A stretch of 56,038 nt of DNA, counting the filler, from Sphacelaria rigidula (taxonomy: Eukaryota): NCBI GenBank assembly GCA_964200075.2. It is 6 parts of 6 records of this genome, joined end to end, with 100 filler letters (N's around TTAATTAATTAA, not from the genome) between each part and the next. Parts side by side here need not be neighbours in the genome. Positions count along the whole stretch, not along the records: positions 46,783 to 56,038 come from CAXNAA020008908.1; 5 more parts are not named here. One strand, written 5' to 3'. Under the pieces are notes generated by a model. The model was not told where the DNA came from and ran no database searches. It saw only the letters and a program-made list of their open reading frames with translations. Position 1 is the first letter of the stretch. Every line of letters begins with the position of its first letter. This document shows, in pieces, positions 8,514 to 56,038 of this stretch. Position numbers and translations under genes: made by a program.

Positions 8514-9027
8514 GCCGTCTCCGTGTGGTGCCAGATCTTCAACTCCGCCTGCTTGAGCCGCGCTCCCGCCTATACCAACATGATGTAAAAGTCGATTGAT
8601 CCTCTGCGAAGCGCGCTACTTCTTGCCTACTTCTACCTACTTGTGCTGCTTAGACCAGTAGGCCGCTGCTAGATGAAGGCTACTCGTTGCTGGTGACAGT
8701 ATCTGTACGCGTGTGTACGCCAGCCTAGCTGCGATGGCCAACTTTTCTACTGGCAGCGGCACTGCCGCTGAGAAACAAGGACAGACGACGCACCACATAA
8801 ATTAGCACGTCTATTTTTTCTGTACCTACGTCCTACATCGTCAGAATTCGTACACCCCTCCGCAAAGACCGCTTTCATACTGAACACTACATTCTTTTCC
8901 CTCGTGGTATTCTTCTCCGCGCGCCGCAAATTATAATTTTGAGTTAAAGCCTTCAACGAACATACATGCCGTGGACCTATGAGATCGGCCAAAACAAATC
9001 GACAGCATTTTTTCGATCGAAAAACTA

Positions 9028-9257: not shown

Positions 9258-9357
9258 NNNNNNNNNNNNNNNNNNNNNNNNNNNNNNNNNNNNNNNNNNN
9301 NTTAATTAATTAANNNNNNNNNNNNNNNNNNNNNNNNNNNNNNNNNNNNNNNNNNNN
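9258..9357. other. Artificial contig linker (N44-TTAATTAATTAA-N44)
   Basis: Exactly 100 nt, with stops in all six frames. Identical to the four other linkers. Confidence 0.98.
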
Positions 9358-12600: not shown

Positions 12601-15600
12601 TCTCGCGAACCCGTGGTCACAGACGTACGCTTGCATTTCCAATACCGTTTCCTGCTATTCCTTACCAGACACAGTACCAAAATGAAATAAGTAGAGAGAC
12701 GCCACGAAAACCGGTGAGAAGCAGCTCCCCCGAGCTCAACGGGGAGGCAAAAGAAAGAAAAACAAGCAAACACGCAAACAACAAACGCCAGATCTGTCAA
12801 AAATGTACACCAAAAGAAAGGAAGAGAGAAAATATTAAAAACCAAAACAGGAAAAGACAGGTGACACGAGCAGATTAGTATGGCCACTATGTTCGGGTTC
12901 AACTCAAGAACAACCATACAGCGTATGATAGCTTGTTGAAGATTGCATGAAATGTCTCATCTTGGCGATATTGGAGAAAACGATCCCGAGCGTGGGAGTC
13001 CGCAGCTGCTCGGTCTGCTCCACTTCCATCATTTTTATTTTCAGACAGATTTTGCCTCCTCAAGCCGGCCACTTTTCTCGGGCGGGGGGGTGCAAGATAT
13101 CGCGGCATGACTCGTGAGTAGTAGATACAATAGTTCGCGACTCGTGTGCCCTTAAGTCGGTTGCTAGAGCTATGTGCTATTAATACTATCGATGGCCTTG
13201 CCTCTTGTTCAATGTCCTCGTTTTTCGTTATTTGTTGTTTTTACTCCATCACCAAATTCAGTCCGCCCGCACTAGCTTCTTGTTTCTTGTTTCTTGTCTT
13301 TATTCGTCAGCTGAGCAGGCATTAGAAAAAAGCAAAGACCATCACCCCTACCCCCCGTGTACTGTGCACCTTGTAGTACGGCATTGACATCAATTGGAAT
13401 CGTGAGTACACCCCTCCCCCGCCCCCCAGAAAATATGAAGCAACTCATTCGAGGATGTCCTCCCAACGCGAGATAATCAGCACGCTTCGGGCCGAACAAC
13501 CCTAGTAGGATGCAGGTCACCCCTCATGCCACTTGCTGCACACACCAGGGCGCTTCGCGCTTCGTGATTGCAAGCCTGGTCCGGCGAAAACCCGGCGTGC
13601 TCCTTTCCGGCTTTGTAGGGATGCAAGGTCGATGGTCTTTTGACTACTGCTTGAAGAGTCATGAGTACACCCGCTCAGTCGCCTCTTGACCCCTCCCGAC
13701 GGCTGTATACCCTGTTTTGTACCTTCCTGACCTTCGTATACCCTGTCTTGGCGAGTGCAGGTGGAAACAGGAACATTCACCGTGACCAACTTAGGTGCCT
13801 ATGGCGTCAAGAACTTCGCTCCGATAGTGCGTATGCCCCAGGCTTGTGCGCTGGCTCTGGGAGCCGCGGAAGAAAGGGTCATCCCCAACGAGGGTAAGTA
13901 ATCGTTCACAGCCGGCTATGGTCTGTACTCAATTTATTGTGAGTCGTGGATACTGCTGCGAGTCTGGCTTTATTCCCCCGCCCTAACTCTGCCGTGCCCC
14001 ACCACCAGCTTGGCTGTGCTCCCTGCGCGATACTTACCAGCTAGTGTTGCTTCCGCCTGCCTAGAACACCGTGCGGTTGGCTCCGACGTACTGTATGTAC
14101 TGCGTTCGCCGACCACGTGGGGCGCTCTCAGTTGGAGCTTTGGTTGTGTCGCACGATAAGGTGTTTCCGAGACGGCAAGAGAGAGAAACTGACTGGGTAC
14201 ATGCGTCATCGGCTCGGCGTTCATGTTGACCGCTCCATTTTTTTTTTTTGCATCTGGAGGTTCCGTTGTTGGCATGCATGCACATGTTCTGCGTTTATTG
14301 TGTTGTTTCGTGATATCTTTTATTCACGAGCTGGGCCAGCAGTACATCCCGCATTTGCATCTCCAACCATAACTCAAGTTTACCAAATCAGCTCGACTTG
14401 AGCATATCGCTGTGAATTGCAGACCAACCTGGTGATGCACGGCATCGACGCTGGTCGATTGGCGAAGGTCTGGCGATGATGTTATTGTACTGCATTGAGT
14501 ACCGGGAACGTCTCGTGTCTTTGCGTGGTAGCGTGTCTAGAGACGTTTCGTTTCACGAAATGCGCTGAAATTACGGTAGGGAATCGCACCGCACAAGCAC
14601 GCGTTGACTCGACATGCGCAGGCAAAAGCACAGTGGTACGAGTAGTGCTGCAACATGATATCAAGGTCGTCAACAGCTCCATCATGGGAGAGAACCTCCC
14701 AGTCGACGGCCATTTATCACCGTCAGAGGGAGAAGTACTCCCCCAAACTGCGCTATACACCCCCTAGGTGCAAGGCGCTATGCCAGATTATTCCCCCCCA
14801 AAATGGTCGTGTCGGGATTCGAACTCGTGACCTCTGTAATAACAGGCGGTTCTATCAGTTTGACCACCGGGGGTGCAGCTGTGCCACACGAAAAATTGGA
14901 TGCTGTGCCAAATTTCTCAAAGTTTTGGCCGATATTGCACCAGGATCTCTTTCACACAAGGACGCACAACATTTATGGGGGCCTCCGTATTGTTTTTTTT
15001 GCACGGAGTTGAAGCAGTTTTCTAGTTTTCGCAGAAGGTTCAAATCGCTCTAATTTCCTTTTTTATTTTTTTCCTTTTTGGGATCCTCAAAAATGTTGTG
15101 TGTGACGATGACTAGAATGTTGTGTCAAAATTTCAGCGCCTAACTCTTCGAATTACTGATAGCATCGCCAGGATATATTCAGAAATCACTGTCAGCTGGC
15201 CCAGCCTGTATTAATCTGTGCTTTTACTCCTTTTTTTTTGTCAAATTCTACATGCGTTTCCCGGTGCTCACATAACACAGGAACATGGGGTAGAACTTGA
15301 TTTATAAATTGTAGCAACACAAAAACATCGCCACAAGTCCATGGTTAGAACAAACTCGAGATACCAATGTGGGCCGATAAAATTGGGTCGCTGATGAAAG
15401 ACTGGCGGTCCGAAAGTGGTCACCTGGCTGGCGCAACACGACACCTTGCTCTTGAGGGGATGTCTCAGCTCGGCCGATGCATGCCTGCCCGTGAAGCTCT
15501 CTGCACACAACCGTTGCTCACAGTTTCTCCCGATGTCTCGGGTGTGGGGGTTAGAACCACGATTACTCTTCATTTCCTTCTACAATACTACTATTTGTCA

Positions 15601-18614: not shown

Positions 18615-18714
18615 NNNNNNNNNNNNNNNNNNNNNNNNNNNNNNNNNNNNNNNNNNNNTTAATTAATTAANNNNNNNNNNNNNNNNNNNNNNNNNNNNNN
18701 NNNNNNNNNNNNNN
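18615..18714. other. Artificial contig linker
   Basis: Same N44-TTAATTAATTAA-N44 structure. Confidence 0.98.
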
Positions 18715-26932: not shown

Positions 26933-27309
26933 GGGGGTATTGTGGTTCCCAGGGTTGTGGTTCAGGAGTGTGGGAGAGAGTCGCGTTGTCGCCGACACTA
27001 CCGAAAACGCTGCCCACGCCGGATGAGATTGTCGGTGGCACAGCTAGTGTATTGCCCGCACCCACCACAGCGCAGGCCACAGAGGTGGGTACCTGCGGCC
27101 GTACCGCTGAAGCGCCGGCACCAAGTATCGGTGACAAGTGTGGTGTGCAGGGATCGGCCAGGCTAACAGCAACTGCGATCGACAGCGTCGGGCACAGTTG
27201 TTAGAAGTGTTGACGATGGGTGACAAGCCACATCTATCGTTGAGGAAACTGTGGTCGACACTTACCGTCACCCTCAACCGCGGTGCCGCAACCTTTTTTT
27301 CTGTCGCAC

Positions 27310-27598
27310 TTCAAACCCTCCCCTTCCTCGGGATGAGTCCGTGGTCTCAAGGGATCAACCTATCTCTCCCCGGCACACGCCTTGCATTTTGGTCTCGCGG
27401 ATTGGATCATGACCAACACTTCCGCACCGCGTCAACTCACGTCAAACAAACTCCGTCGACTACTTTGTTTACTCACGTTCTCACGCTTTACACGGTGGAA
27501 ATCAGATACTACAAAGAAAAAACCCAACGCGTCGGGAATCAAACCCTTGTTCTCTCCACCTTAATGGCGACAGTCGGACCATTATATCACTGGGGCGC
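27310..27598 (-). mobile_element. tRNA-derived SINE family 1 copy
   Basis: Aligns over its length with 31230-31503. Minus-strand head gcgccccagtgatataatggtccgactgtcgcc...gggtttgattcccg. Confidence 0.8.
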
Positions 27599-27970: not shown

Positions 27971-28070
27971 NNNNNNNNNNNNNNNNNNNNNNNNNNNNNN
28001 NNNNNNNNNNNNNNTTAATTAATTAANNNNNNNNNNNNNNNNNNNNNNNNNNNNNNNNNNNNNNNNNNNN
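27971..28070. other. Artificial contig linker
   Basis: Same N44-TTAATTAATTAA-N44 structure. Confidence 0.98.
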
Positions 28071-30133
28071 TGTTGGTTTGTGGTAATGGTTGGTGTGGGT
28101 TGTGGATGGGTTGTGTTTAGGGGAGTGGGGTGGTGGGGGGGGTGTACTCATGATCATGCATATCATAGTCATAAGACTATTGAAAAAGGTCAGGAGAGGG
28201 GGAGACAACCCTACCCATTGCAATCTACCGGAGATAATTGCTCACGAAACGAGCACCGGTCAGGGTACGGGATGCTTCTCAGTGTATACCCCGTTTCACG
28301 CCAAAATTGTCCTTTTCATTGCCGAGGTTCCACGTCATAAGTATGGTTTAGTCAAAACACTACAACCGAATCACGCTTGCATAAAACAGTCCAATACGTC
28401 GTGCACAATGAACGCGAAAAACGGCGTGAAAAGGAAACGCGTTTTGAGCTTTGGGGTGGGGGATACACGAATATATTAGCTCGCGGCAGCACATGTTCAT
28501 GTTGTAGATCACCGCCTTCGCGAGTACGCCAATAATCAAACACAACGGACGCAAAAAATGAAGTGATACGGTAAGGTGTCTGGTGGTTTGGGGTAGGTAT
28601 TATAGTAGTCAGCATCAGAAGTTTTCAGAGTTCGTAGTTGTTCTATTTTTTTTTTGTTTTTCTGGAGCATCATTTTTCCCTACTACTTGAAAGTGCTAGC
28701 GCCGGTAGATTTAGGGAGAACGCGTAGGCTGCGCTCAAACTGCAGTGCTCGAGTTGGTGTTTTTGGGGCGATACGGACTTGATACCCCGTTTATCAGGAG
28801 TGTGCTATTGACCGTTTTTGGTCCAATATAAGCAGTTTTCCCGCTCTTTCTCTGGTGAAGTGACACAACAGTATGGAAAAAAAGGAAGGGCGCCGAAAGA
28901 GTTGGCATCAGCTACGAGCTCGACAGAGGAAGGATCAACATGCAGGGCGGTGCAGTGGTCTCCCGTAATCGGTATGCCAGACGGCCGTACCGGGGCGTCG
29001 AACATCCAGCAAGTCAGCGACGTCGCAACGGATCTTGCGGCTGGCGCGAACGCACGGTTGCGCTCGCAACGGACGGTGTCGCGGAGACCAAGGGTTGAAG
29101 GATGAAAGCATGCCGATCCAATAATGATACACCAACACCAAATATGCGATTGATTTTCAGTCGCAAGGAGGCGCTTTGTTTGCAATCGAACATTCATCGA
29201 CCTCTTGGTTTGATACCATGAAGGTTTACAATAGTTTCCCTGACCTCTAGACGCCGCTGAGGGGTAACGTACATTACCCGTATCGTCCGTGCGGAGTGAA
29301 CTATTATCGAGTATGTTCATTGGAGCGCTGCAAAGCGTTGAACGTGGAGGCTGGAGGAAATGAAGCCCATGTACATAAACGTGCACAATGCGCACGAAGC
29401 ACCGCACTGCTTGCTCGCGACATGACAAACGTACACGGGGTAAAGTCTCACCATGTGGTAGTGCCTTGCTCCATCTCAGGGGTGTGCATGTGTATGGTGG
29501 CTATTGCGGCGTGAATGCAACCGTCGGTATTTTTCCTCGAGGAGCTCTCACCACAAGGGCCGCCGTTTTTCGACTGAAAGGACCACCACGGAACACAAAA
29601 GCCACAGGATGGACGATTGTTAGTACTGACCGCGGAGGGGGGATGGGGGTTGGGTGTATGCAGGGGGGGGGGGGGGCGTACTCATTCGTTGCTTGCCTTC
29701 ATCGTTTGACCAATTACCACCCATCCCTTTCGAGACGAAGTAAGCGGGGGGGGGGGGGGGGGGGGGGGGAGAAGGTCCCAGAAAAATTCATCGTATTTCA
29801 CAGAAAAGGTCGCCTCAGCCCCACCTCTCCTGACCCCCCAAACAGTGAGCCCACAATGATACATATAGCGATACAGACGCTAATTCGTTCTCAATTCACG
29901 TGAACAGACCTTGGCGTATCTACAGTAGTGTGAGCAAAATTGATGCTGTCTTCCACTTTGCCTCCTCCCCCGACGATGGTGATGACCTCTGCACAGCACA
30001 AACTAAGGGTTCAGTCACGAACGGTTCGACGGTTTACAACAAAATAAATGCCAGTGCACTAATCAAGGCGAACATGTCCCTCGAATAGGTTAACGTTGCG
30101 CCACCGTCAGGCGGACCTAATCTTCATCCTCAC

Positions 30134-31057: not shown

Positions 31058-31917
31058 CAGTAGTGGGCGGTCTAACTATTAAGGGGTGTTTTGGGGTTTT
31101 CCTCGCGTACTACTCTTCGATAAAACTTGAAATTGCTAGCGTCGATAGATTTTGGTACAACAAAACAGATCATCTTCGAAACACAGTACCCAAGTCAGTG
31201 TGTGTGTGTGTTTTTTCTCCTCACACTTTGAACCCCTTCCTTCCTCGGGATGAGTCCGTAGTCTCAAGGGATCAACCTATCTCTCCCCCGGTACGTGCCT
31301 TTCATTTTGATCTCGCGGGTTGGATCAGCACTCCCGCACCACGTCGACTCACGTCACACAAATCCAGTCGACTACTTTTGCTTACTCACGCTTTCCACAG
31401 TAAAAACCATACATTTCGAAGAAAAATACCCAGCGCATCGGGAATCGAACCCCCGTTCTCTCCACCCTCATGGCGACAGTCGGATCATTACACCACCGGG
31501 GCGCAGCGCGTTAGTTGGTGTTATCGGGCGAAACGAGTAAATACCCCATTTTCCAGGAGGGTGTTATTGACCGTGAAACACAGTTTTTCGGTCCTAGTGC
31601 ACTAAGTAGGCAGAATTTGAAAAAAATTAAACCGTACACTTCTTTACAAATATGATCGGGACGGGCTCGATCGACGGAAATTATAAGAGAGTAAGAATCT
31701 GGCCTGAAACGTGGCAGGACCCCCGATGACCGGTCAGCCCGTAAGTCAATCAATATTGAGTACAGATGGTTTTTCTTCCTGGAATGTGGAGCGGACACAA
31801 ATATCTGCAGATCCCCGATGTGATAAAGGGTGGCGAGCGAAAGGAGCCCAAGAAAATCACCAATTACGAAAAAAACACAAAATGTCACAAAATGATTAGT
31901 TAGACCGCCCACTACTG
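31058..31917. mobile_element. Tc1/mariner(pogo)-type MITE with TA target-site duplication
   Basis: TA|CAGTAGTGGGCGGTCTAACTA ... TAGTTAGACCGCCCACTACTG|TA, a perfect 21-bp TIR starting CAGT. No coding capacity. Contains a SINE. Confidence 0.85.
31198..31503 (-). mobile_element. tRNA-derived SINE family 1 copy nested in a MITE
   Basis: Head cccggTGGTGTAATGatcc...GGTTCGATTCCcg (A and B boxes), shared ~290-bp body, and a (CA)n 3' tail on the minus strand. Confidence 0.85.
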
Positions 31918-32557: not shown

Positions 32558-34028
32558 TCAGGCGCGACTGCAATGCCCCCTCCCAGCGGGGCTGTCACCG
32601 TCACTGGGGGCGGACGGGTCTTCGTTGGTTTCGGAAGTTCGATAACGCTGATCTTCACGGTACGCGCCTTCGCTTGTTCCGATCGCGATAACGAAGTCGT
32701 CGGCACTCTTGCCCGCGATTTTCTGATGTGGCCGGCAGCGGTGTGATACGGACATATTGAACGGGCGGGTATAACGGTCAGTTACGGCACGTTTTCTGGC
32801 GGCAAAATAGCGAGGACAGGAACACCTGTCATACGTGTTACTGCAATACGGCGTTGAATACCCCTCATGTTTACTGCGTTGTCCCCCCTCACCTTTGGAA
32901 CACGCACGGCCCTCTGGTGTGCACGCAGCAGATGAAGTCGTCATTCACAGCGTTTCCAGCGTTCTCTTCCGCACCCCCAGCACGCTGCCATTTTTCAAGG
33001 CATTTCCTGCACACCCAGTAGTGGCAACGTTTTCCCTTTCCATCCGCATTCTCCTGGCCGCGGCACAAAGCCTTTGCTTCAGGTTTCACCCTTCCTTTTT
33101 GATTCCTACACCCATGGCAAGTTTTGGCTCGATTGGTTAGCATTCCTTTCCGCTTCCCCGGCCGCGATCTACAAGCGGATTGGGTCCGCGGGCATTTTTC
33201 ACTGTCCTGGGATGAAACGGTGTCATCGGAACCAGCGGTTGCTTCCAATGCTCTCGTGTCCGCCACTCCTCCAGCGTTCGATCCTCCAGATTGCCTATAG
33301 CCTTCTGCCATGCCGGCTGCTATTTTCTCACCAGGGTCGTCGTATGTGGTGCCACTTGCGCCCATGCTCAGCACTCGCGGTTGATAATCACCCGCAAAAG
33401 AACGAACAGCATTGACGATATCCGGGTACTGCCACATACTCGGCCTCCTTGCACCTCCAGAGCGTACACCAACAGCGGATACGGTGCACGGTGACACTGT
33501 TGCCTTATGACGAACCCTTGCATCCCCAGCAGGGCCAGAGACAGTGTCCGGGGAAATTGGCGCCCTTTCCCGGATCCTTATCCTTGAGTCCCTGCAAGAA
33601 CCTGAAACAGCGCCCATGGACCCTGGAGCTCCAACACTTCTATACCCAACGCGGGAAACAGTGCCGCTGGTCACCGGCGCTTCATTCCGCCCCCTTCTAC
33701 CCACCGAATGTCCGAAGACGATGCTTGGGGAAATCGACGCCCTCTTCGCGACCCTTGCGTCCAAACAAGGACCACAGACAGTGTCCGGGGACGCTGGTGC
33801 TCCTATATGTCTACAGCCAACGCGGGAAACAGTGCCGCTGGCCACCGGCGCGCCATTCGCTCCCCTTCTACCCATCGAAAGGCCCGAGACATTCCCCGGG
33901 AAAATAGGCGCCCTCTTCCCAACCCTTGCGTCCGAACAAGGACCATAGACAGTGTCTGGGGACGCTGGTGCTCCTACCCTTGCACCATGACCAGGATGTG
34001 CCTCTTCCTTCTTCGTCTCGTTGTCAAC
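32558..34028 (-). CDS. Unknown protein with 57-aa tandem repeats and a zf-4CXXC_R1-like Cys/His finger (partial gene)
   Basis: Exon 34028-32893 (acceptor ttcag|GTT), a predicted 67-nt intron 32892-32826, then an exon from 32825. Spliced: KTCHGCRNQK..ALC..KRCHYWVCRKCLEKW..FICCVHTRGPCVFQRCSCPRY. Confidence 0.55.
33460..33985 (-). repeat. 171-bp in-frame higher-order repeat (~3 copies, each made of three 17-20-aa subunits)
   Basis: gtgtc.ggggacgctggtgctcc occurs at 33781 and 33952, 171 nt apart. The protein repeats GAPASPDTV.GPC.DARV.KRA.I.P..V.G.S.GRRG.N.APV.SGTVSRVG.R. Confidence 0.9.
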
Positions 34029-34399
34029 CTGAAGATATGAAAAAAGCGGCGGCGCAATGGTGACCGATTCGTGGCGGAACGCTTTTGACGGTCTCATGTA
34101 CACAGAATCTATGTCATGCGCATTGCCCCCTGACCTGTGCCACGTTGACACACGTTTTTGTTCATCTTCTCAACATGTGTTACGAGCAGTTGCAACCACA
34201 TGTGTTCGCATTAAAGCAGTGAACGGTGACGATGATAGTGAGAGATGTTGGCCGGCCTATAACTGAGTTCGACATTCTGAAATATTCAAATGACACCATC
34301 GATGTACTCGAGGGTATTCCCGCCATATTCAATGGGTCGACAGCCAAGATACATGAGCACCGGTGATGCGTCATGGCTCATGGCACAGTTTGAATAAAA

Positions 34400-37326: not shown

Positions 37327-37426
37327 NNNNNNNNNNNNNNNNNNNNNNNNNNNNNNNNNNNNNNNNNNNNTTAATTAATTAANNNNNNNNNNNNNNNNNN
37401 NNNNNNNNNNNNNNNNNNNNNNNNNN
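37327..37426. other. Artificial contig linker
   Basis: Same N44-TTAATTAATTAA-N44 structure. Confidence 0.98.
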
Positions 37427-40800: not shown

Positions 40801-43800
40801 GCTGACTCTGAACCCTAGCCCTGAACCCCTGAGTTTGAAAAGATGCTGAGCTCTTACAACTCACCGGCGTTATCAACAACGACGTCGATTCTGTCTCCAC
40901 CCCTTTTCCCGCAAGCCACCAACGCCTCAACGAGTCTGTTGGAATCATCCGCCAGCAGATTCTCCGAACTAGATTCTAAAACCTGCGAGAACACGTCGAC
41001 TGTCCTTCCCGCAGAACTTTCATCTTTTTGTTTTGTTTCGGAAGCAACATGAAGAAGAGTGTTTCGAATAAAACGGTGGATACAAGAAGACCGTATTATC
41101 GAATCAGGGGGAGGGGGAGGGGGAGCGGGGGGGTGTACTCATGATCTTGCATGCCCTAGTCATACGACAATTGACCTCGCATCCCTACAAAAGCCTGGAC
41201 GGAGCACGCCGAGCTTTCGCCGGACTAGGCTCGAGGGGAGGGGGGGGGGGGGGGGGGGGTACTCATTTGTCGCTTGCCTTAGTCGTTTGACCATTGATCA
41301 GGCATCCCCTTCGAGACAGAGCGCGTGTGAGGTGGGAAGGGAGGCACGGGTAGAGGATAGAGTGGAGATCATGATCTCATCTCTTTCTAGTATACATTCA
41401 CTCGGCAACCCGCCGGGATCCGTAAAATTCGTGAAAACGCAGCTCTCAGCATCCATGACATGCCGCTTCTTGTCTTTACGAATATGTTACCCGCTCCACT
41501 CGGTGGGTTTCTTTTGCTTCTTGCAGTGAAAACAGCACTTTAGGGTAACGGTCAAGCGTCGGGCATTCACATAACCCACGACACAATTCGAGCCGTACAT
41601 ACCGCATTCCCGTTCAGCGGGCACTGACTGTATCAATCGAAACATCCTTACGGTCATGGAGTACAATTTTTAACGCTGGACGCCCATGCTCTAGCGGCAT
41701 ACATCGGTAGCAATATTCTCTCGGTCAGTGTGAAGCTTTTCGTGCTTACCCACAGGCCAGATGCTAAGATCCATTCGGTTACCCCACAGCGCCGCGGAAA
41801 TATACAACTTCATTCCCGTCGCGGAGCCCAATACCTCCGCCTGGAGCATATAACAAAAATACGAGTAATGGCAAAACAGCAGATTCCTATTTGCTTGGTT
41901 TTCATTACTGAATCAAATTAATGCAGTGAATATCCAAAGCGCTGTAGGCGTATGCAACCCATCATATTAAAATACTTCAAAGTAAATACAAAATTAATTT
42001 AAAAAACGTGAGCGCATAACTCGTGCAGCATTGCCAATTAAACTCTGTATATCACAGCATTCCTTAAAACAGAATTGTCGGGTAAAACCCAATGCCAAGC
42101 ATTTTGCTGATAATGCCGTTCCTTCAGCATGTAGGACTCAGAATACGGATATCGTGTACCCCTTATATTTCGGACGAAGATACTACGCTAAAAAATAGAA
42201 TGCAGATCCAACTAACAAGCTGGTCGCCCCGGTGGCTCAGTTAGTAACCTCGAAACCCTCTGACGGTTGGGTCATGGGTTCAAATCTCGGAGCGATCTGG
42301 GATTTTTCTCACATCATGCCCAACAGTGGAGAGCGACTATGTCGTGGGTGCACAAAATTCGACTTAACGGCCGGTGAGGGAACGGGAACACTGAACCCCT
42401 CTCGCGATAAAAAATAAAGGCAAGCACTGCAAAAGGAAGGTGGGGCACTAAAAACAAAAAACAGAAAAAAATCTCCTGTGTTGACCTTCTTCTTGTGTGA
42501 CCCCTGCTGGTGCGCCCACATATCCCGAAAGGTATAGACCGGCGCCCAGAATAGATGGGACGACAACAGAGAAGTCTCCTCTACAATACAATAAAACGAT
42601 AAGGTTTAGGTATAGCAAGAGAGTAGTGAAACGAAACAGGGTCATGGTCCAAATCATACTCTCGTGGGGGAGTGACTTCATTAAGTTACACTGCAGTAGA
42701 GTAGAACATGACTGAGGGCAAAAAGTGGATGAATCATGCATACAGTGCATATTATTATTGAAACATGTGAGTGAAATCAGACTGGCCTACTGAATATATG
42801 TTGGTCGGCGCAGCACAGTATACGCTCCCCTTCCATCCCTACCGCAGCCCGAAGGCACAACCACAAAGGCATACACAAAAACGGTCGGGTACGAAACCGG
42901 ATGAAATACAGGGCGAAAAGCGCTACTCGCTGTTTTACTCACATCTGTCGCCAGCAAGCGCTTCGCCAAGGCCTCGATAGAGCTTAATGCCGACGTAACC
43001 CCTAGCATCTTTGGTCCGGAGAAGGGATCCACTCCTGAAAGACGGCAACGATGGCGACACCAAGTGCGACACACACACAGGGTAAAAAAACGTGCCTATA
43101 ATAGGTGGAGAAACAAAACAGCCAAACTTCAACAGATTTCGAAACATACGATGCGTTTTCAAACACAACAGCTGCAACATGACCACGCAACACATCATGG
43201 AGGCCCACATTTATCGTTTTGGCTGTTGAGTTTTGAGAAAATCAATGATACAAGCCATGAACAAGTCGTGACTGAACCAGCCGAATCGAAAATGAAGTAG
43301 AGTCAAAGACATGAAAATAAGACGTGTTGGGTGCAGCTTGGACGTTTCGGATGACGCTTTTACAACGAATATAACCATTTTTATGTTTTCGTTCTGGGAG
43401 AGTAAAGTTATCGAATTTCTGCCATGAATTATCAGCAACAACAACACATGGTAATAAAAACACAGCACTCGCGATTCATGTCCACTGTATAAAACTTACC
43501 CGTCTTGAAAAATGAAAACGCCTCCATCAAGCGCCTGTAGGCGTAAAACTCCGCGTAGAGCCACGGCGTGTCTAGCCAGTTCATGCCTAGGTACGGTTCC
43601 ATGATCTTGTTCCACTCAGAAACTTCTGGGCCTCCGTCTTCCGATATCGGTCTCAACTGCGTATAAGTGGATATGTCGATACGTCAACGTGAATGTACAA
43701 AACAGAAAAAACGGCACTGGAGTTGTCTTGCGATAAATTTCAATTCAAGGTATTATTTACAGATTCCATGTCATGTCACCAATGCAGAAATGTTATATAT

Positions 43801-46682: not shown

Positions 46683-46782
46683 NNNNNNNNNNNNNNNNNN
46701 NNNNNNNNNNNNNNNNNNNNNNNNNNTTAATTAATTAANNNNNNNNNNNNNNNNNNNNNNNNNNNNNNNNNNNNNNNNNNNN
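46683..46782. other. Artificial contig linker
   Basis: Same N44-TTAATTAATTAA-N44 structure. Confidence 0.98.
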
Positions 46783-47614
46783 ATGACGTTTTTGTACTGC
46801 ATAGAGTACAGGGTGGGTCTGATATTGTTGAGCAATAGCGTGTCGGAGTGCGTTTTTTTTACAATGGGCGGGTTCACGTCAGCAATCACCCCGCACTGGG
46901 TACTAGCGGGGTGCAGCGCGTCACGTCAAACGTTGCACGCACGGCCAAATTCGACTACTCTTGAGCTGAAACTTCACGTAGACTTTCTGAACCCAAGGAA
47001 ATACTGCGTCCCGTGAGCAGCTGCAGATTCTCATTTTTTTGCTGGATTTATGATATCGTCTTGTTTTTGCTGAAATTTCAAATCTCATAACTTCCTTACT
47101 ATTCTTTTCTCCGCTTCTCGCGTGATGTTGTGCATGTTGATCATAAAAAGCTGCCGTCAAAATTTCAGCGCCCAACTCGTAATATCACGCCGTGTGTCGC
47201 CTGAGCGAGATTCGTACCCACTCTTGGGTGGCCCAGCTCGCAGTGGTTCACTCCTTGACTATACAACTCAATGCAAGGAGAGGGGAGTAATGACTACTGA
47301 GGGAGAGCAATGGGGTGATCCCTCGATAATACTCATACTATACCTGATACGGAAAAGAGGACAGGCGGGCGGGGTGGGTATGAATAGCGCATCAAGGATG
47401 GACGCGATAACGTCAACTGCTGATCCGCCTTTCATTGAACGATAGACTTCACACTCGCATTTCTGTGGAAGACTCGTGCCCTTCCTTCATGCGTGCAACA
47501 GTGCGGCAGAGGCCATCATCGTCATCCATGCCAAAATCTCACCAAAACACAGCACGCACGCTCCCTTCATCCATCAACTATCGTATCAAACCCGAAGCAC
47601 GATTCCTATCCCAC

Positions 47615-50600
47615 CTTCAGCATCGTCTCTTCCTGCTCGGCCTCGGTGAGCGCGTGAGCTTCGACTTCTGCCTCCAGTGTGAGGTGCAGGTCACCTAGCT
47701 GGCGGGTGCAGACATCCCTATCCGTCTGCAACGTTGTCGACAGCGTGTCCACCCTTGCCTCCGCGGACACGCGAGCTTCTGCCTCCCCCTGCAGCTGGAC
47801 GTTAAGGGCGTCCAGCTCGCGGCCGCAAACCTCCCGGTCCTTCTCGAGCGAAGTAGTCAGCGCGTCCACCCTCGCACTCTCGGTCTTCACCAAGCTCTCC
47901 AGCTTCTCGCTGTGTAGCTTGCTGTCGTCGAGGGCGTCTTGGAGGAGAGCCAGCTGCCGAAGGAGGACGGCTTCCGCCTCCTGGATTATTGTTCAGTTTG
48001 GTGTTCCAGTCGACGGCGCGTGCAGAGAGCGGCGATTTGAGGAACGGGTGAAACCAAACGCCGAGGGCGGCAAAACAGTTCAGCGAGCGGGCGGTCACTA
48101 CACTATGTCACCCTGTCACCGTGTCCGTCCCGCTTTCGCTCTCGTGTGTTGAAGAACAAATGGTATAGAAACAAAAATGTCTCAGGGGCCACCTGGAGCG
48201 AGCACATGCACGAGTGTCTCCCTTCAAATATTTCCGACTTGCTTGTGTATATACAGTATATACACCATGGTTGACATGAGGATGCTTGAACGCAACGTGT
48301 AACGTGATCACCCCTAACGGCAAGGATATTGATCGGCAATATCCCAACAGCTCTCAACTCGGTATCATATCAGGGTCCTAGAGCTTTCAGTGCCCACGGA
48401 GAAAACATGCTCCCCAGGCAACAGCAACAACAGCAACAACAGGATCAGAGCGTTGATTGCAGTGTGCGTGAGCGTAATGATGACCATGTATTTTCACGTA
48501 CCACGACCACTGCCTTCCAAGCTACGGTTACGCACGACGCAGCATCGACTACACAAGAGAAAACAAATCAAGAAGTGACAACGGTCATAAAACGACGAGA
48601 AAAAACACAACGGTGGCGATTTCAACTCACCGCTGGACAAGCCGGAATCGACGATGATACGAGTAACAACAGACTATACAGGGGAAAATTGAGGAAAACG
48701 ACGATCGTTCCGGGGGGAAGGTGGAGGCGTCGTACGGTACTCAGGATTCGCATGAGGTTGCTCTTTGACCGTCGACTACGTACACATCACCGACACTCTC
48801 ACGTGTCTGAACGAAATCTAGCAACCGAGTGAGTGCCTGTAGAATGCACGAGGCATGCATGTGCACCTTGCCTTCCTCATCGCTTCTTAGCGCTACAGCC
48901 CTCCCCGCACACGTGGATGTACAGCACCATGTACGTGCCGTGATATAGACAGCGCTTTCAATCTCCCCCCCCACCCCCGCCGAATACGCCAACTTCGAAC
49001 CGTAGACACATAATCACAACATATCAATGTAACACAAGCACAGCACGCCACCTGCTGCTGCGCGATGGTGCTCTGCATCTCCTCCATTCGGTCCGTGTTG
49101 TGACGAACGGTGTCCTCCAGCTCCGCCACCCTAGACACCGCGAGCTGCTTCTTGTCAGTCATAGCCAAAGATTCCTTCGAAAGCTCTCCCAGCCTTGCGG
49201 TGACTCCGCGGTATTCGGTATCGCAGGTGGTGAGGGCACCCGAAATCTCCAGCCTTTTGTTCAAATCTTTTTCGTGGGCTGCCTCCTCCTCCCGCAGTTG
49301 GTCTTGGAGAGTCACCACGCGCTCGAGTGTCACGTTCCTCTGTTATTTGTTTTTTCCAGTCGATTTGGCAAACGTTTGTGTGGGACGCGGGGGGAGCAAC
49401 GTGAGACATACTATGTATGTAGTACAGTGGACGAGGATGTGATCGTTTCAGAATATTATCGCTGCGACAATTCGAGTCACGCATTTTGTCCCGAGCTTTT
49501 GTTCCACATTTCGACTGAAACACCATTAAACAGTGGTGTGCTTCCAGGATACCCCTGCCGCTGTTGAGACGCTGGGCCATTCGATCGTTTCAACACTCCA
49601 TGAGTGCAAAAGCAGATCGAAGCCATAGCCCATAACTCAGTAGTATTGTCGCACATGATGAAGTTATCCGCTACGAATCCGACATTAGTAACAAGATACA
49701 CGTATACGTATACATACGTATACGACACAAAAAATCGAAAACACCCCACTGATGGAACTTCGAGGAAGGGGAAATACAAGCAAGACAGAAAACAATATCA
49801 ATGGAGTAAAATGCAAAAATGAAGGGAGATAAAAGTGAGGCCAGTATTTACTGCCGGTCCCGAAAATATATACCCAGCCGAGCTGGTTCACGCTCATCAC
49901 CCGAGACATCCTCATCGGCGAATTCCTTCCGCAATACCTACCCAATGGCCGCATGACTGGCACCATATCGACTGCAACGGACAACTGAAGAGGGTGACAC
50001 AGCTGGGGTTTTTTTAAGGCCATAGCGGTGGTGCTAAGGGCTACAAGGTGCCTCGACCAATCGGAGACCTTCAAATTATTTAGAAATCGCTAACATCAAT
50101 TCTCATCACCATTTCTACCTCATTTTCACATACTTCACATCGCAGTAGCCGCCCCCGGCCCGAGAATCTAAGGGGAAGAAAAAGTGAAAACGGTTGCTAT
50201 GATATCAGATTACACTCAAATACGTAGTGTGAACGGTTGCTATAAGATCGGATTACACTCAAAACCGTATAGCGTTTCGGTGATGTCGGGTTTTGGCGTC
50301 GTCGTATTTCCACTGACGATGGACACCAAAGATACATGAAGACACCTGGCGGTTTCCCTCTTCGGTGGCAGAAAAGCTCTGACCACCCTCAAGCCTGGCA
50401 CTTCAGTAGATATCGGTGTTCCGTATGGCAGTATGTATTGTTGACAAATATCTCAAAGATATTTTCTATCCGACTCGATTTCCGCGGGTCCCGGTGTGAA
50501 GACCCCTAGTTGGCGGTACAGGATGACACGAAACGGAAACTTCAAGAATGCTCACGTCCCGGAGTAGTCCAAGGGGCGTTTGTACAGAGTTTCGTTGTGT

Positions 50601-53600
50601 AACTCGCAAAGATTCCGCAACGTATTCTTTTCCACGGTACAGCAAGCCGCCACGGCCCGGCGGTGTAAAAAATAAAATTGTCCGACTGTCGCCATCAGGG
50701 TGCAGCGAACGTTGTTTCGACTCCCGATGCGTTGCATTCTTTCTTTCAGGTATCCGATTTCCACCGTCGAAAGCGTGGGTACGGTGGTAGCAAAATAGTG
50801 TAATATACTTTGTTTGACGAGAGTCGACGCCACGCGGGAGTGCCGGTGGTCATGATCCAGTCCGCGATACCGAAGTGCAAGGCGCGTATCGGGGGAGAGA
50901 TGAGTTGTTTTCTTGACACTACTGTACAGACTCGTCCCGAGGAAGGGCGGGTGTTCAAAATGCGACGAAAAAACTGAAAAAACGTGAGCGATGGTGGCAC
51001 CGTACCAGCAGAGCACCTACCTCCACTTCAAGGATAACCTCAAGCGACTCGATCAACAGGCCCTGGTCGACAGCCGTGATGTTCCGGGCGGCCTTGACGG
51101 TGGAGGAGAGCACATCTGCCTCGAGAGTCTGCTGTGCAAACCTGTACATCCAAGTCGCGAATCACGTCAACCAAGCGAACATGCAAGCGACGGCAGAGGG
51201 GGCAAGAGGTGGATCCAACAACACTGGACAACGCCTGCGCCGTATGCATGTAGCTTGGATGTCAATCATTGCGACAGTCGCACGAAAACACTCCAGCGGT
51301 GTGCTACCAGTGACCCGATGTGGAGCAATGGACAAGTCAGACAAACAAAGTTTATTTCGGTCCAACGCGATGAAGACATCCACCCAACCACCCCAGCACT
51401 TGGACCAAAGTCCTGGTCCCATTCCACAATCAACCTGTATTACGTCAAGGCTCACTCACATTTCGGATGGGGCTACGAGATAAGATTTCTACAAGCGCCG
51501 TGTGACGTGCAGTACGAGTTTGGTACCAGAGGCCCGGTACCCCGACCCATGGCTTGCAGCAAAGATACAGATAGGCAGAGGAATAAGTGCTATACCGATG
51601 AACTGATTGATCGATTGATCGGTTTTTGTACATGAAGTCATCCTCCAGGAATCCAGCCGTGATCACGACATAGGCATAGCCAAGGTAAACAAAAACGGAA
51701 ACACCCGCTACAGGAAATTCGAGGAAGGAGAACAATGCAGAAAAAATTAGATCAGCAGTACTCTGAAATGCGATGAGCAAAGTAAAACTGACACCAAAGT
51801 CCAAAAGGGAGAGGCTGGAAAGGAATGAAAAAAGGCAGGCAAAACAAGAAAAACGGCAAGGTTAAATAAAGCACCGGCTCGGATGAACATAACGGGGAAA
51901 AGGACGGCCACTGCCGCATGGCTTCGAGTTAACAAGTCCCGCAAACAGTAAAAAGCGAAACAACACAAAACCGACAGCAAAAAGGCCCGTGAAAGCAGGC
52001 TAAGGCTCAGCTGTGTTGGAGCCGCACTGTTTGGACATGGAGTCTCCCCTACGAGCTCTGTAGGGACGAGATACGAACAATGTTGTGGTAAATTTCGGTG
52101 GACACTTGATCAGGTATGTACAGCCTAACAACAAACCGCCGTCTTTTTCAGGGCATTACATTTATTGGGCAACCAGCAGTTATTGGGCAACCAGGAGGTG
52201 GAGAGAGAAGACAGCAGGGATATGTGGAGGAACATCGCACACAAAGTGTAACAGACAGCGGGCATATGCACGTGATGTAAACATGAGCATTGCATCGTCT
52301 CGTCTATTCCACCTGGGGAGCTAACACACCTAACCAAACTGTCGAGTCATGTGAGGGTCGAGGTAAGTAACGAGAAGCACACATCACTCCTTGCATCTTC
52401 AGGCATACGCGACAGGGAGATGTTTTCACTCCTCCATCGCCATAGTCATACAATACTATCAATATTCGTGCATCAATAGCATACAGTACCGGCCTGCATA
52501 CATATCAACACACGGACGGGAAGGAGCGACTCATATTGAAACGAGCCGAAACTATCTAGCGAATCTTTGCACCACATTTAAGCACCATGATCGGATCACC
52601 TGCACATTTTTGGAAACCATGCTTACCCGTTGGTTGGACTACGAAGCACTCCCGCACATCTTTGACTCCTCAGGACCATTTATACACACGCGAATCAAGT
52701 CACATCCAGTCTGTCTCGACTAAAGCATGACACTATCAATGCGCAGTGGGGGGCTCCCAGGCGAGGAGCTAATACTCCTTCGTCGGCGGAGCCTTTGCGG
52801 CGGACCCTAATTCGGTGAAAGAGCAAACATTGCTACGAATATTTACATCCAAATGAAGCCACGGCAAATGAGTTGCAGTGAAAATCGAATATAAAAAATA
52901 GCACTCAAATAGCACAGGTGCCGGGGGGGAGATGGCTTGACCCATTGAATAGACAAAACCATAGACTTGTCCCCCGAGGAAGGGGAAGTCATCGCAAGTG
53001 GCGAAGAAAAAGACAAGACCGCCGTGCCCTCGTGGTCAGACCGATACACCGACGGACGGTTACGAAGGAAGGTCACGGGTTACGGGTTCAAATCCCTACA
53101 GATAAGGCCATTCTGGACAGGATCTGGTTCGTTTTGGGCCGTTGAAGGCGTGACGGCGTGAGTAGCGAAGAAAAATCGACGACAGTTGACGTGGTGCGAG
53201 AGTGCTGCTGGTCATCATCCAATCTTGCGATATGAAAATGGCAGGCAGGAAGGTATACTGCCGGGGGATAGACAGGTCGATCTCCTAAGACCACGAAGTT
53301 ATTATTCTGATGAAGGCGAGAGGTTAATGATACGATAAGATATTACATGGCGACGCTAAGAAGAGACAAGAGGAAGCTGTAGGTCACGCCCAAACGGCCA
53401 AACATCGGTTGGGCAGCGCATAAGCCGGTGGTAGACGCATGTATACTTAAATACACACAAACACACATACACCAATTAGCTTACCGCGAGTCGTGGCGCA
53501 AGGAGTCTTCCATGTTGTAAACCGCGATGGCGTTGCGGGCTACCTGGACGGCCTCGCCCGAGTAGCCCTCGTACACAGCCATGTCCAGGTAGAACTGGAC

Positions 53601-53660
53601 AGCGGCCAGGTCGCCTACGCCCAGTAACTCCTCCAGCATATGGCCGCAGTTCTCGTTTCC
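47615..53660 (-). CDS. Unknown coiled-coil protein, four internal exons (gene incomplete at both ends)
   Basis: Exons 53660-53485, 51141-51021, 49339-49052 and 47980-47615 are GT-AG and phase-consistent (2,0,0). Content is E/L/A/Q-rich and heptad-like. The last exon has an internal 39-aa duplication (ARVDALTTSLEKDREVCGRELDAL / ARVDTLSTTLQTDRDVCTRQLGDL). Confidence 0.8.
50654..50982 (+). mobile_element. tRNA-derived SINE family 1 copy (intronic)
   Basis: tccgactgtcgccatcagggtg...tttcgactcccgatgcg...gtatccgatttccaccgt...ggtcatgatcc...gactcgtcccgaggaaggg is the reverse complement of the 27310 and 31230 copies. Confidence 0.8.
51600..51980 (-). mobile_element. Retroposon 3' end with (AATC)-like tail
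   Basis: The minus strand has a T-rich body ending gtgatcacggctggattcctggaggatgac...gatcaatcgatcaatcag. Confidence 0.55.
53025..53330 (+). mobile_element. Divergent SINE family 1-related copy with a different tRNA-like head
   Basis: B-box GGTTCAAATCC at ~53085. The body (gtgagtag..tcgac..agttgacgtggtgcg.gagtgctg..ggtcatcatcc...ccgggggatagacaggtcgatctcctaagaccacg) matches family 1. Confidence 0.6.
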
Positions 53661-55286
53661 CTGATTGTCATAGCGTACACGGCAGCATGGGTAAAACATA
53701 GGCGTTTGAGTACATCACCATCATCACCGCCACCATTGTCTGAGTTGCTCTTCTAATAGACAACAATTTTATCAACTCCAAGTGTAACCGCCCAACTCCG
53801 TCAAGATGAAGGTCAACCGTCACGGAAACGAAGTGCATCGAACGCAATACCTCAGCAACCGTACAGCCAGCCTGTCTCGACTCTACCAAAGGTGTAGGGG
53901 CACGATTAGAATCGCCTCAAGTCTTAGGAATACCTGTGTGTTCACAGTCACTTCGGACCATTTTGTACGAAAAAGGGGGGATTTTCGTAATTTGAAATTT
54001 CTCTCCCCCCAACCCAGGACCGCTCTCGCTCCTTTCCTCACACCTCGACCACATGTTGAACAATCAGCAGCACCATGTGACCAGGAAGCCTCGGGGTTTC
54101 AAGCACTAGTACCGGGTACAGTAGTACCCTAGAGCATCGTCACGGGGTCATCCGATGCTCCCTCCCCCTATATCAAGAACCTACCCCCTATAGGATAAGG
54201 TCAGGTACGACAACAGTTGTGTGAATCAGCTTTCCTGCCCCGCGCGCAGAACAGCCTGGTCCACTAATGGCATACTGCACTGCACTCTACTGTACCGCAC
54301 TGTACTATGGTATGTCTAGGTAAGTTAGTTTTAGTCATAACTTCCGAACGAAAACGAACTGTAATGTGAACCAGTCATGCTTGTGAAGGGGGGGGTTGAA
54401 TTAAGTCGATCGTCGCGAGGTTATTCATTAGATACAACATTTTGGCCCAAAATTAGCCCGAAATTCGTCAGTTTACCCTGAAGAGGAAACTGTTTGCCCC
54501 GAGTTTTCGCGAGACGAATCGATAGTCCACTTGTGAAAAACGTCGTTGTTCGTGTGCCATTACATCGTGATATATTTCATAATATGATTCACACCAAAAA
54601 TCATGCAAACCATACCCACACCATGATGCTCCTCTGCTCCAACATAAAGGCAAGACCAAATAAAATGGAAAATCTCGTGAAATTTCATCTTCCCAGAGAA
54701 TGCAAAAAAAATACTCTTTGGGAGATTCATGAGGGAAAGGATTTGTCGTCCTCGATTTTGAAATCAAGAGGTTGATTGCCGCACGAAAAGCGAACAAAAT
54801 GACCACATTGTACACCTCGATAACTAAACTGCGTCAAGTTTTGCTATTGCAAGAATTTGAGAAAAAAAAAGAAAGAGCAAATTGCAAGAGCTGTTCAATT
54901 CTGACGTCGAAACTGTCATTTGCATAAACACACATCCCCCCGCAAAAAGTCAGCAAGAGCTTCCGAATTTTGGGCACAAAGGGACAACGGCAAAAAATGA
55001 GAAAATATTCTTCACAGACACCTACTCGGAAACCAGGCTTTTCAAGGGGCTTTTGAATATCAGAACAACAACCTCCACCTCGGGAAAAGTGTATGTTTGT
55101 GGTGTGTGACAATATGAAGAAATTGTCCAGGACGAACCATACAGCGGCAGCAATGTGCATCAAGGGGGTAAGGATAGTGGAGTATTAAGCCATCGTCGGC
55201 CGTACGATTTGTGTTACTGACCCCCCGCCCCCCCCCCAATCCCCCTGTGTTCTCCCTGTCGTGCCGATGACGTATCATTTACGCAG

Positions 55287-55406
55287 GAAACACTTGAGGC
55301 GGGCGTTACGGTCGGAGCGAGGCGCCCACACCAGACCTACGGGTATCCGCTCGTGTGGGTTGTGTTCGCCAAACACCTGAGCGCCCGTAGCAACTCTTAT
55401 GTGAAG
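55287..55406 (+). other. Inverted 120-nt exon cassette C (ETLEAGVTVGARRPHQTYGYPLVWVVFAKHLSARSNSYVK), antisense to the host gene
   Basis: tttacgcag|GAA ... AAG|gtacca on the plus strand. Same length, intact splice sites, no stops. Not reported by the ORF track. Confidence 0.8.
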
Positions 55407-55448
55407 GTACCATAGAAAAGGAAGTACCCCTAATCTTTTCTGAGGTAC

Positions 55449-55568
55449 CTTTACGTAGGCCTCGCTACGGGCGCTCAGGTTCTTGGTGAAAGTATCCCGA
55501 ACGAGTGGGTAACTGTGGATGTGGTGTGCGTGCCTCGCTTCGGCCGAAACACCCGGCTCGAATGTTTC
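55449..55568 (-). CDS. 120-nt phase-0 exon cassette B (ETFEPGVSAEARHAHHIHSYPLVRDTFTKNLSARSEAYVK)
   Basis: tttgcgcag|GAA ... AAG|gtacct. Open frame. Confidence 0.75.
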
Positions 55569-55814
55569 CTGCGCAAATGATACGCCATCGACATGGCAGA
55601 GAGAACACAAGTGACTCTCACAATCATTGTTAGGGAGGACAACGTACCAAGTATTTTGCTTCCCGAGGGGTAAGTATCGCCCGGTCAGTGTTTCAGCGTT
55701 CATAATTTTTGTATCGTGACTAGCTTGTCCCCACCGCTCAAACTCATCAAGCACGCAAATAAGGGATGAACCAAAGAATAAAGTCAAGCTTCTCTCTTTT
55801 TCTGAGGTACCCAC

Positions 55815-55934
55815 CTTGATATAAGAATTGCCACGTGCGGCGAGGTGCTTTCCAAAAACATCCCGGACAAACGAGAACCCGTAGATGGCGTGGGCGTGCC
55901 TGGCTTCGGCCGCGATGCCCGCCTCAAATGATTC
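55815..55934 (-). CDS. 120-nt phase-0 exon cassette A (ESFEAGIAAEARHAHAIYGFSFVRDVFGKHLAARGNSYIK)
   Basis: tttacgcag|GAA ... AAG|gtgggt. Paralogous to cassettes B and C. Confidence 0.75.
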
Positions 55935-56038
55935 CTGCGTAAATGATAAAGCCATCGGCACGACAGGGAGAACACAGGGGGGCGCGGGGGGGTGTACTCA
56001 TGACCATGCATGCCATAGTCATAAGACCATTGACCTCG

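Follow-up and report, generated by a model that had tools for sequence, protein, structure and literature searches.

An expressed 120-nt exon of Sphacelaria rigidula and its two intronic copies, one tandem and one inverted, as probable relics of old local duplication

Exon copies that lie within introns are known from several systems, the closest of which is found in Ectocarpus. There, intact copies of LRR and TPR exons occur on the non-coding strand within introns, according to Zambounis et al. (2012, PMC3341825), a supplementary table of which covers the few shuffling candidates other than LRR and TPR; a related account of spare exons in the ROCO-LRR and NB-ARC-TPR genes of Ectocarpus was given by Teng et al. 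(2024, PMC11378527). More generally, unused duplicated exons in introns, and tandem exon duplication as a route to mutually exclusive exons, are treated by Ivanov & Pervouchine (2022, PMC9013439), and the prediction of mutually exclusive exons by structural criteria is covered by Pillmann et al. (2011, PMC3228551). Competing RNA structures formed by docking sites and selector sequences in mutually exclusive splicing are described by Ivanov & Pervouchine (2018, PMC6071210), and the origin of plant hairpin small-RNA and microRNA genes by inverted duplication in a further study (PMC3237417). Here, we describe a locus of Sphacelaria rigidula in which three paralogous units, each built around a 120-nucleotide (nt) open frame and termed cassettes A, B and C, lie in a minus-strand gene (the host gene). 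The stretch under study, hereafter the window, is the whole 56,038 nt of DNA analysed, and the host gene was followed as far as the window's end. Cassette A is a real exon of that gene, of phase 0/0 and spliced to the exon that begins at 53660; B and C are probably relics of duplication.

Compared with the Ectocarpus ROCO-LRR and NB-ARC-TPR genes, the locus is alike in having one unit per exon, each of 120 nt and of symmetric phase 0 (that of A being fixed by transcript junctions), and in carrying C on the non-coding strand inside the intron between A and the 53660 exon, with both acceptor and donor dinucleotides preserved. It differs in that three units are present in the window and one in the transcript, as against the many in series that form an LRR or TPR domain, in that the module is a predicted two-helix unit of 40 amino acids (aa) without a family, and in that the units appear old, have ratios of nonsynonymous to synonymous substitution (dN/dS) below 1 and show no structural difference between two DNA samples. 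Like tandem-duplicated mutually exclusive exons, A and B are adjacent and homologous, share strand, length and phase, and have AG/GT borders; unlike such exons, only A was seen in transcripts, the extended donor of B appears degenerate, and a third, inverted copy is present. As in docking-site and selector-sequence systems, two upstream elements, the A region and the B region, are each complementary to antisense C, which could not pair with both at once, but the element here is a whole antisense exon copy of ~175 nt, alternative usage was not seen, and the pairing does not appear to be selected. Finally, as at plant inverted-duplication loci, a coding segment was duplicated in inverted orientation, so that a transcribed region can form a long hairpin with imperfect pairing; unlike the plant hairpins, this one is intronic to the gene from which it arose.

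The three paralogous units measure ~190 nt each. Cassette A (55815-55934, minus strand) is preceded by an upstream intron flank (55935-55992, minus) that comprises a C-rich tract, a pyrimidine tract and a cgcag acceptor and that belongs to the duplicated unit. Cassette B (55449-55568, minus) is a same-strand copy with a flank (55569-55615, minus) in which homology to A and C stops ~47 nt ahead of the acceptor. Cassette C (55287-55406, plus) is an inverted copy that lies antisense inside the host-gene intron, and its upstream flank (55230-55286, plus) has that of A as its nearest match. Repeat detection, translation and alignment bore out what a first, sequence-only reading of this DNA had proposed for these positions, namely three 120-nt open frames with AG and GT at their borders. 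Each frame translated into 40 residues with zero stops, and a pyrimidine-rich run, a cgcag acceptor and an AAG-gt donor boundary were present in all three. The 14 of 40 protein columns that are invariant across A, B and C match the framework proposed in that reading, and the tail-to-tail placement of C and B, 42 nt apart (55407-55448), was likewise confirmed. Identity among the units was 72-78% for DNA and 53-55% for protein (A-B, 55%), and blastn E-values between them ranged from 1e-21 to 1e-36, well beyond chance.

As repeats, A and B formed a direct pair (55447-55582 and 55813-55948; 136 nt, 71%, spacing 366), and three inverted pairs involved C. One, between 55246-55420 and 55435-55609, had 175-nt arms that are 78% complementary and 14 nt apart; this is a palindrome of B and antisense C (55246-55609, minus) that would form a long pre-mRNA hairpin with its 14-nt loop at 55421-55434. 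The second joined 55273-55408 to 55813-55948 (136 nt, 74%), and the third, in the far flanks, 55230-55269 to 55953-55992 (40 nt, 90%). Neither DNA nor protein comparison found a fourth copy in the 56-kb window, the next tblastn match having E = 0.13. We also observed that the minus-strand frame 55275-55997 is open for 240 codons through A, the A-B intron, B, the spacer and antisense C. The A-B intron is 246 nt long (82 codons, a multiple of three) and stop-free, such that its retention would keep the frame; the 240-codon frame ranks as the fifth-longest stop-free frame in the window, and no transcript contig retains this intron.

To place the cassettes in a gene, we relied on sequencing runs. 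A run search over 46800-56038 returned nine runs from three studies that carry all or part of the stretch, one of them labelled 'algae metagenome'. Four of these (X6-X9) contain about one tenth of the stretch's words and were guessed to be RNA, no run being recorded as such; X6, X7 and X8, all from one study, were treated as coming from RNA on the strength of the canonical splice sites at the joins in their contigs. Transcript evidence here means assembled contigs from this single study, which lose rare isoforms. Per-bin cover over B (none in X6-X8) and over C (0.28, in X7 only) was set aside, and the argument rests on contigs that bridge B.

Spliced contigs in all three RNA-like runs join A directly to the 53660 exon, passing over B and C. 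Specifically, X6 rec12 (5799 nt), X7 rec16 (2995 nt) and X8 rec19 and rec20 map along the host-gene exons in pieces (55814-55935/6, 53483-53659, 51021-51139, 49051-49339 and 47615-47979) that are contiguous within contigs and have 0-2 mismatches each. A is covered by X6 rec12, X7 rec16 and X8 rec20, every one of which continues directly at 53659. For every one of the four junctions a single canonical GT-AG placement exists, that of A being 55815 to 53660, and this placement confirmed an earlier statement that the 53660 exon starts in phase 0. The exons that follow A on the minus strand, as delimited by the transcript junctions, are 53485-53660 (176 nt), 51021-51141 (121 nt), 49052-49339 (288 nt) and 47615-47980 (exon 5; 366 nt from the extent of the contigs, with an approximate lower border). 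Joined, the five exons comprise 1071 bases, which the frame of A reads as 357 codons without a stop. From the joined transcripts and the open frame together, it follows that A serves the host gene as an exon and that B is skipped, B being absent from every assembled transcript contig of the three runs. The proposal that any cassette could splice to the 53660 exon was borne out for A, with its transcripts and 357 open codons, and not for B in the assembled contigs, which skip it in all three runs.

Beyond the examined stretch, contigs run on 5′ of A for 447 nt (X7) and 27 nt (X8), and the X6 contig extends ~4.7 kb 3′ of 47615; given these overhangs, the gene is large and its start lies beyond the window's end. 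AlphaFold 2 (AF2) predicted the exon 5 product as one helix (residues 2-121; predicted local distance difference test [pLDDT] score 97), and this single predicted helix of 120 residues is in line with the coiled-coil host gene of the sequence-only reading. The 40-aa module of A was predicted from a three-sequence alignment as two helices, at residues 3-18 and 20-39 (AF2, pLDDT 71.5).

We judge it probable, short of being firmly established, that A is an ordinary expressed exon and that B and C are what remains of two local duplications, one tandem and one inverted. Under this explanation A would be a constitutive exon, contributing a 40-residue two-helix module to the N-terminal half of a large coiled-coil protein. 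The duplicated unit of ~190 nt, consisting of the exon, ~50-60 nt of acceptor-side intron and ~15 nt beyond the donor, would have been copied locally at least twice, long ago, yielding the tandem copy B, 366 nt downstream of A, and the inverted copy C, tail-to-tail with B. Both copies are inside the 2.1-kb intron between A and the 53660 exon, where the spliceosome would normally pass them over. B may be kept out by a donor that departs from the others of the host gene, together with the hairpin it could form with antisense C (arms of ~175 nt), and C by being on the wrong strand, where it would be accumulating radical replacements.

With respect to the donors, the five confirmed in the host gene read gtgggt (A), gtaagc, gtaggt, gtggcg and gtggga, and those of the copies gtacct (B) and gtacca (C), the GT being kept. 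In the alignment, B and C both miss 4 nt that are present in A right behind AAG, and because of this common gap their extended donors are unlike the confirmed five. At +4/+5 the donor of B matches few or none of the confirmed donors, and its acceptor is nearly the same as that of A. The AAG-GT boundary ascribed earlier to all three cassettes was recovered, but B and C are without the 4 nt after GT and their extended motifs differ from that of A.

The pattern of substitution pointed to age and, for C, to decay. Pairwise dN/dS (Nei-Gojobori) was 0.32 for A-B (dS 1.0), 0.38 for A-C (dS 0.77) and 0.54 for B-C (dS 0.50), estimates that have low power over 40 codons. With dS of 0.5-1.0 and 72-78% nucleotide identity, the copies appear to be old. 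No sign of diversifying selection was seen in these ratios (0.32-0.54). Private changes were then assigned by three-way parsimony, each change being given to the odd copy out. A had 8, 4 and 8 changes at first, second and third codon positions (8 synonymous, 12 nonsynonymous; mean BLOSUM62 score +1.25, thus conservative), B had 8, 1 and 6 (5 and 10; +0.43), and C had an even 3, 5 and 4 (3 and 9; -1.25), the radical private residues of C including R24W, D25V, E10G and A14P. On these patterns A looks constrained, C looks like a product of neutral decay, and B falls between the two. Moreover, when neutral copies were simulated from the three-way consensus, the open reading frame (ORF), AG and GT were all retained in 50% after 12 substitutions and in 42% after 15, and for that reason an intact frame with splice dinucleotides is weak evidence of function and does not require selection. 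The suggestion that C is kept as an intact reserve finds no support on either count, its private changes being neutral-looking or radical and its intactness being expected at a rate of 0.42-0.50 under neutrality.

The hairpin potential of the intron was pronounced. The minus-strand segment 55225-55630 folded with a minimum free energy (MFE) of -234.6 kcal/mol, versus -137.4 ± 5.6 kcal/mol for 100 shuffles (z = -17.2). A 776-nt fold that includes A had z = -13.2 and a hybrid MFE structure, in which the 3′ part of antisense C pairs with the acceptor flank of A and the start of exon A, and the 5′ part pairs with the 3′ end and donor of B. The complementarity of antisense C is 78% with B and 74-77% with A, and competing pairings are possible on paper.

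Several observations weigh against the view of B and C as relics. In light of the predicted 776-nt structure, a fold in which C silences B is not the sole one possible. The three 120-nt frames contain no indels, as against 2 in ~63 nt of aligned flank, which is a weak hint of constraint. Additionally, the flank was more conserved than the exon for A-C (44/47 versus 83/120 identical; Fisher p = 5e-4), while the corresponding comparisons were 37/47 versus 80/120 for A-B (p = 0.14) and 37/46 versus 88/119 for B-C (p = 0.43). Even against third codon positions, of which 25/40 are identical, the A-C flank (44/47) stands out; pure decay does not predict such conservation in a wrong-strand copy, and gene conversion or constraint is needed to account for it. 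The private changes of B spare second codon positions (binomial P of at most 1 of 15 ~0.02, uncorrected for three tests), and this codon pattern, along with the A-B dN/dS of 0.32, suggests that B may be under coding constraint, past or present. Finally, the assembled contigs would fail to show an isoform with B if it were minor or restricted to certain conditions.

As regards conversion, 15 of the 16 informative sites of C upstream of -23 agree with A, and the remaining sites are divided between A (19) and B (22); a recombination test gave a maximum chi-square of 10.7 (permutation p = 0.012). Its far upstream border is common with A and its donor-side gap common with B. We do not claim gene conversion, because about half of the upstream A-like signal comes from columns beyond the homology of B, where B is probably non-homologous; as far as the alignment goes, lineage-specific events can account for the mixed affinities of C without recombination.

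The best-surviving alternative, which we nevertheless consider unlikely, is that tandem duplication made A and B a pair of alternative exons, either of the cassette type or mutually exclusive, with B used rarely or conditionally, and that antisense C docks to the A or the B region and so influences the choice. The two belong to the same gene, are homologous, share strand, length and phase and have kept AG/GT, features that correspond to the structural criteria for mutually exclusive exons of Pillmann et al. (PMC3228551). B private changes (8, 1 and 6) spare second positions, the acceptor flanks are conserved (A-C, 44/47), and antisense C, complementary to A and B, is split between them in the 776-nt fold, a geometry that resembles docking sites and selectors as presented in PMC6071210. 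However, B is missing from the assembled transcripts, with all three runs joining A to the 53660 exon, and its donor is unlike the five confirmed donors. Neither did transitions between the copies give a sign of selection for pairing. Wobble-compatible and incompatible transitions numbered 11 versus 19 over the B-C unit (5 versus 15 in the exon) and 12 versus 10 over the A-C unit, without an excess of G-U compatible changes, and an A/B control was similar. Furthermore, the docking/selector elements known to us are short intronic sequences, not whole antisense exons.

A more specific version of this alternative appears rather improbable to us. In it, one inverted duplication would have produced an antisense docking copy, C, that chooses between two 40-residue helical modules, or neither, as a case of RNA-structure-controlled splicing with an independent origin in an alga; C would then, with the same low probability as a part of this version, be exon-like only as a mirror of its coding partners. 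If true, exon choice controlled by RNA structure would have been born of an inverted exon duplication. More broadly, were B in use, the locus would hold rare duplicated alternative exons that are neither LRR nor TPR, in an alga and with an antisense copy able to pair with either exon, and it would allow a direct test of whether duplications yield competing RNA structures along with the exons they regulate.

Less probable still is that the hairpin of B and antisense C is processed to small RNAs, which would make it a putative young hairpin-RNA locus that could feed back on A transcripts. The original inverted-duplication model of small-RNA genes reportedly dates from 2004. The predicted hairpin is very stable, with arms of ~175 nt and a 14-nt loop, and lies within a transcribed intron, an arrangement consistent with the inverted-duplication model of plant microRNA origin as outlined in PMC3237417. 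An Rfam search produced only a sub-threshold match, to the microRNA precursor family RF03356 at the hairpin tip; this weak, shape-only match (26.6 bits, E = 0.06) was far below the gathering threshold of 100 bits and was dismissed. Against processing, too, are the arms, which at 72-77% identity to A would be too diverged for efficient targeting of it, and the 78% complementarity, which implies many mismatches in the stem.

A system of shuffled or reserve exons at the level of DNA, like that of the Ectocarpus ROCO-LRR and NB-ARC-TPR genes, in which C would be a silent spare for recombination into the gene, we regard as very improbable. An intact copy that retains its splice dinucleotides does lie on the non-coding strand within an intron of this gene, and the identical length and symmetric phase 0 of the units fit the account in PMC3341825. 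To this extent, the Ectocarpus-like architecture proposed by the sequence-only reading was recovered, but the many-exon array, recent copies and diversifying selection of such a system were not. Only three units are in the window and one is in mRNA, and they form no repeat domain, show no LRR or TPR signal and have no real relatives among the proteins searched. The units appear old (dS 0.5-1.0), not freshly shuffled, dN/dS is below 1, and the changes in C are radical. Homologous exchange would probably be inefficient at 74-78% identity over ~180 nt.

Moreover, the arrangement was identical in a second DNA sample, the one other that was compared. This sample, X3, is a DNA assembly from a study separate from that of the RNA-like runs, and its contig rec8 (782 nt) follows 55230-56010 colinearly, differing by 3 mismatches and 1 gap and leaving order and orientation unchanged. 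Exon shuffling or switching, the central proposal of the earlier interpretation, finds no support in the straight joining of A to 53660, the skipping of B in the assembled transcripts, or the count of three copies in the window with one in mRNA; the interpretation overall was partly supported. In X3, depth over B was 33.9, which equals that one contig, and the X3 assembly consequently holds no other copy at 90% identity or above.

An assembly artefact, a palindrome or duplicated units mis-assembled near a contig end, has a negligible chance of explaining the locus: it lies within 100 nt of the window's end and adjoins a very high-copy repeat, but the arms are 78% and not 100% identical, and the independent X3 assembly shows the same order across 55230-56010, with 3 mismatches and 1 gap.

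Taken as an expressed exon with two duplicated relics, the locus adds to a known phenomenon, that of exon duplication with unused intronic copies, and is notable only for its tidy palindrome and its competing-pairing geometry. It offers a clean example of tandem and inverted local exon duplication leaving exon-like relics in an intron. It also carries a caution for scans for spare exons, in that a neutral copy at such divergence keeps its ORF and AG/GT about half of the time.

Searches for relatives supported the statement that the module is neither LRR nor TPR, as no Pfam family was returned for the three cassettes (E <= 10) and a cassette hidden Markov model (HMM) found no real relative among 1.84 billion (1.84e9) representative proteins. 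The lone HMM match, P0004, consists of five near-identical repeats, each matching only positions 16-34 of the profile, and was rejected as a chance match inflated by repetition. For the host gene, homologues were sought among proteins of up to 2000 aa: exon 2 (58 aa) yielded 46 candidates, none with E <= 0.01, and exon 5 (122 aa) yielded 5448, none with E <= 0.001. A match of DUF555 to the exon 2 ORF (17.2 bits, cut-off 25) was dismissed. In metagenome contigs, exon 2 peptides gave 600 pattern matches with 0 confirmed, and the common acceptor-flank motif gave 0 matches. The host gene looks lineage-restricted. A transposon origin of the palindrome was also considered and rejected, given the absence of a target-site duplication in the flanks, the single-copy depth in X3 and the presence of the far flank of C in A as well.

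Other features of the window were noted in passing. Within host-gene introns, the segments 46800-47415, 50188-51111 and 52960-53267 are repeated elements, judging from DNA-run contig depths of 5e2 to 3.6e4, and divergent copies of 50672-50973 (72-75%) lie at 27295-27587 and 31213-31484. Further away, a 426-codon frame at 32892-34169 (minus) encodes an internally repeated unit of ~40-50 residues, in which G, A, P, S and R are frequent, and a Cys/His-rich tail, and it has no Pfam family; it may be part of the same long transcript or another gene. Long frames at 6750-8615 (minus, 622 codons), 1701-2714 (plus, 338) and 4522-5376 (minus, 285) had no Pfam family either, and 10 of the largest ORFs in the window were without a Pfam match. 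Paired runs of 44 N occur at 9258-9357, 18615-18714, 27971-28070, 37327-37426 and 46683-46782, with a spacing of 9356 nt, and are filler joins according to the description of the stretch. Lastly, the very high-copy dispersed repeat at 55986-56038, a G-run followed by ~45 nt, adjoins the upstream flank of A. Its further copies (83-92% identity) lie at 41121-41179, 28136-28183 and 13626-13672, hundreds of loose contig ends fall at 55984-55989, and in the last bin the summed contig depth of the RNA-like runs reached 3.7e4-5.4e4 and that of the DNA run 8e5, compared with ~30-36 for unique sequence.

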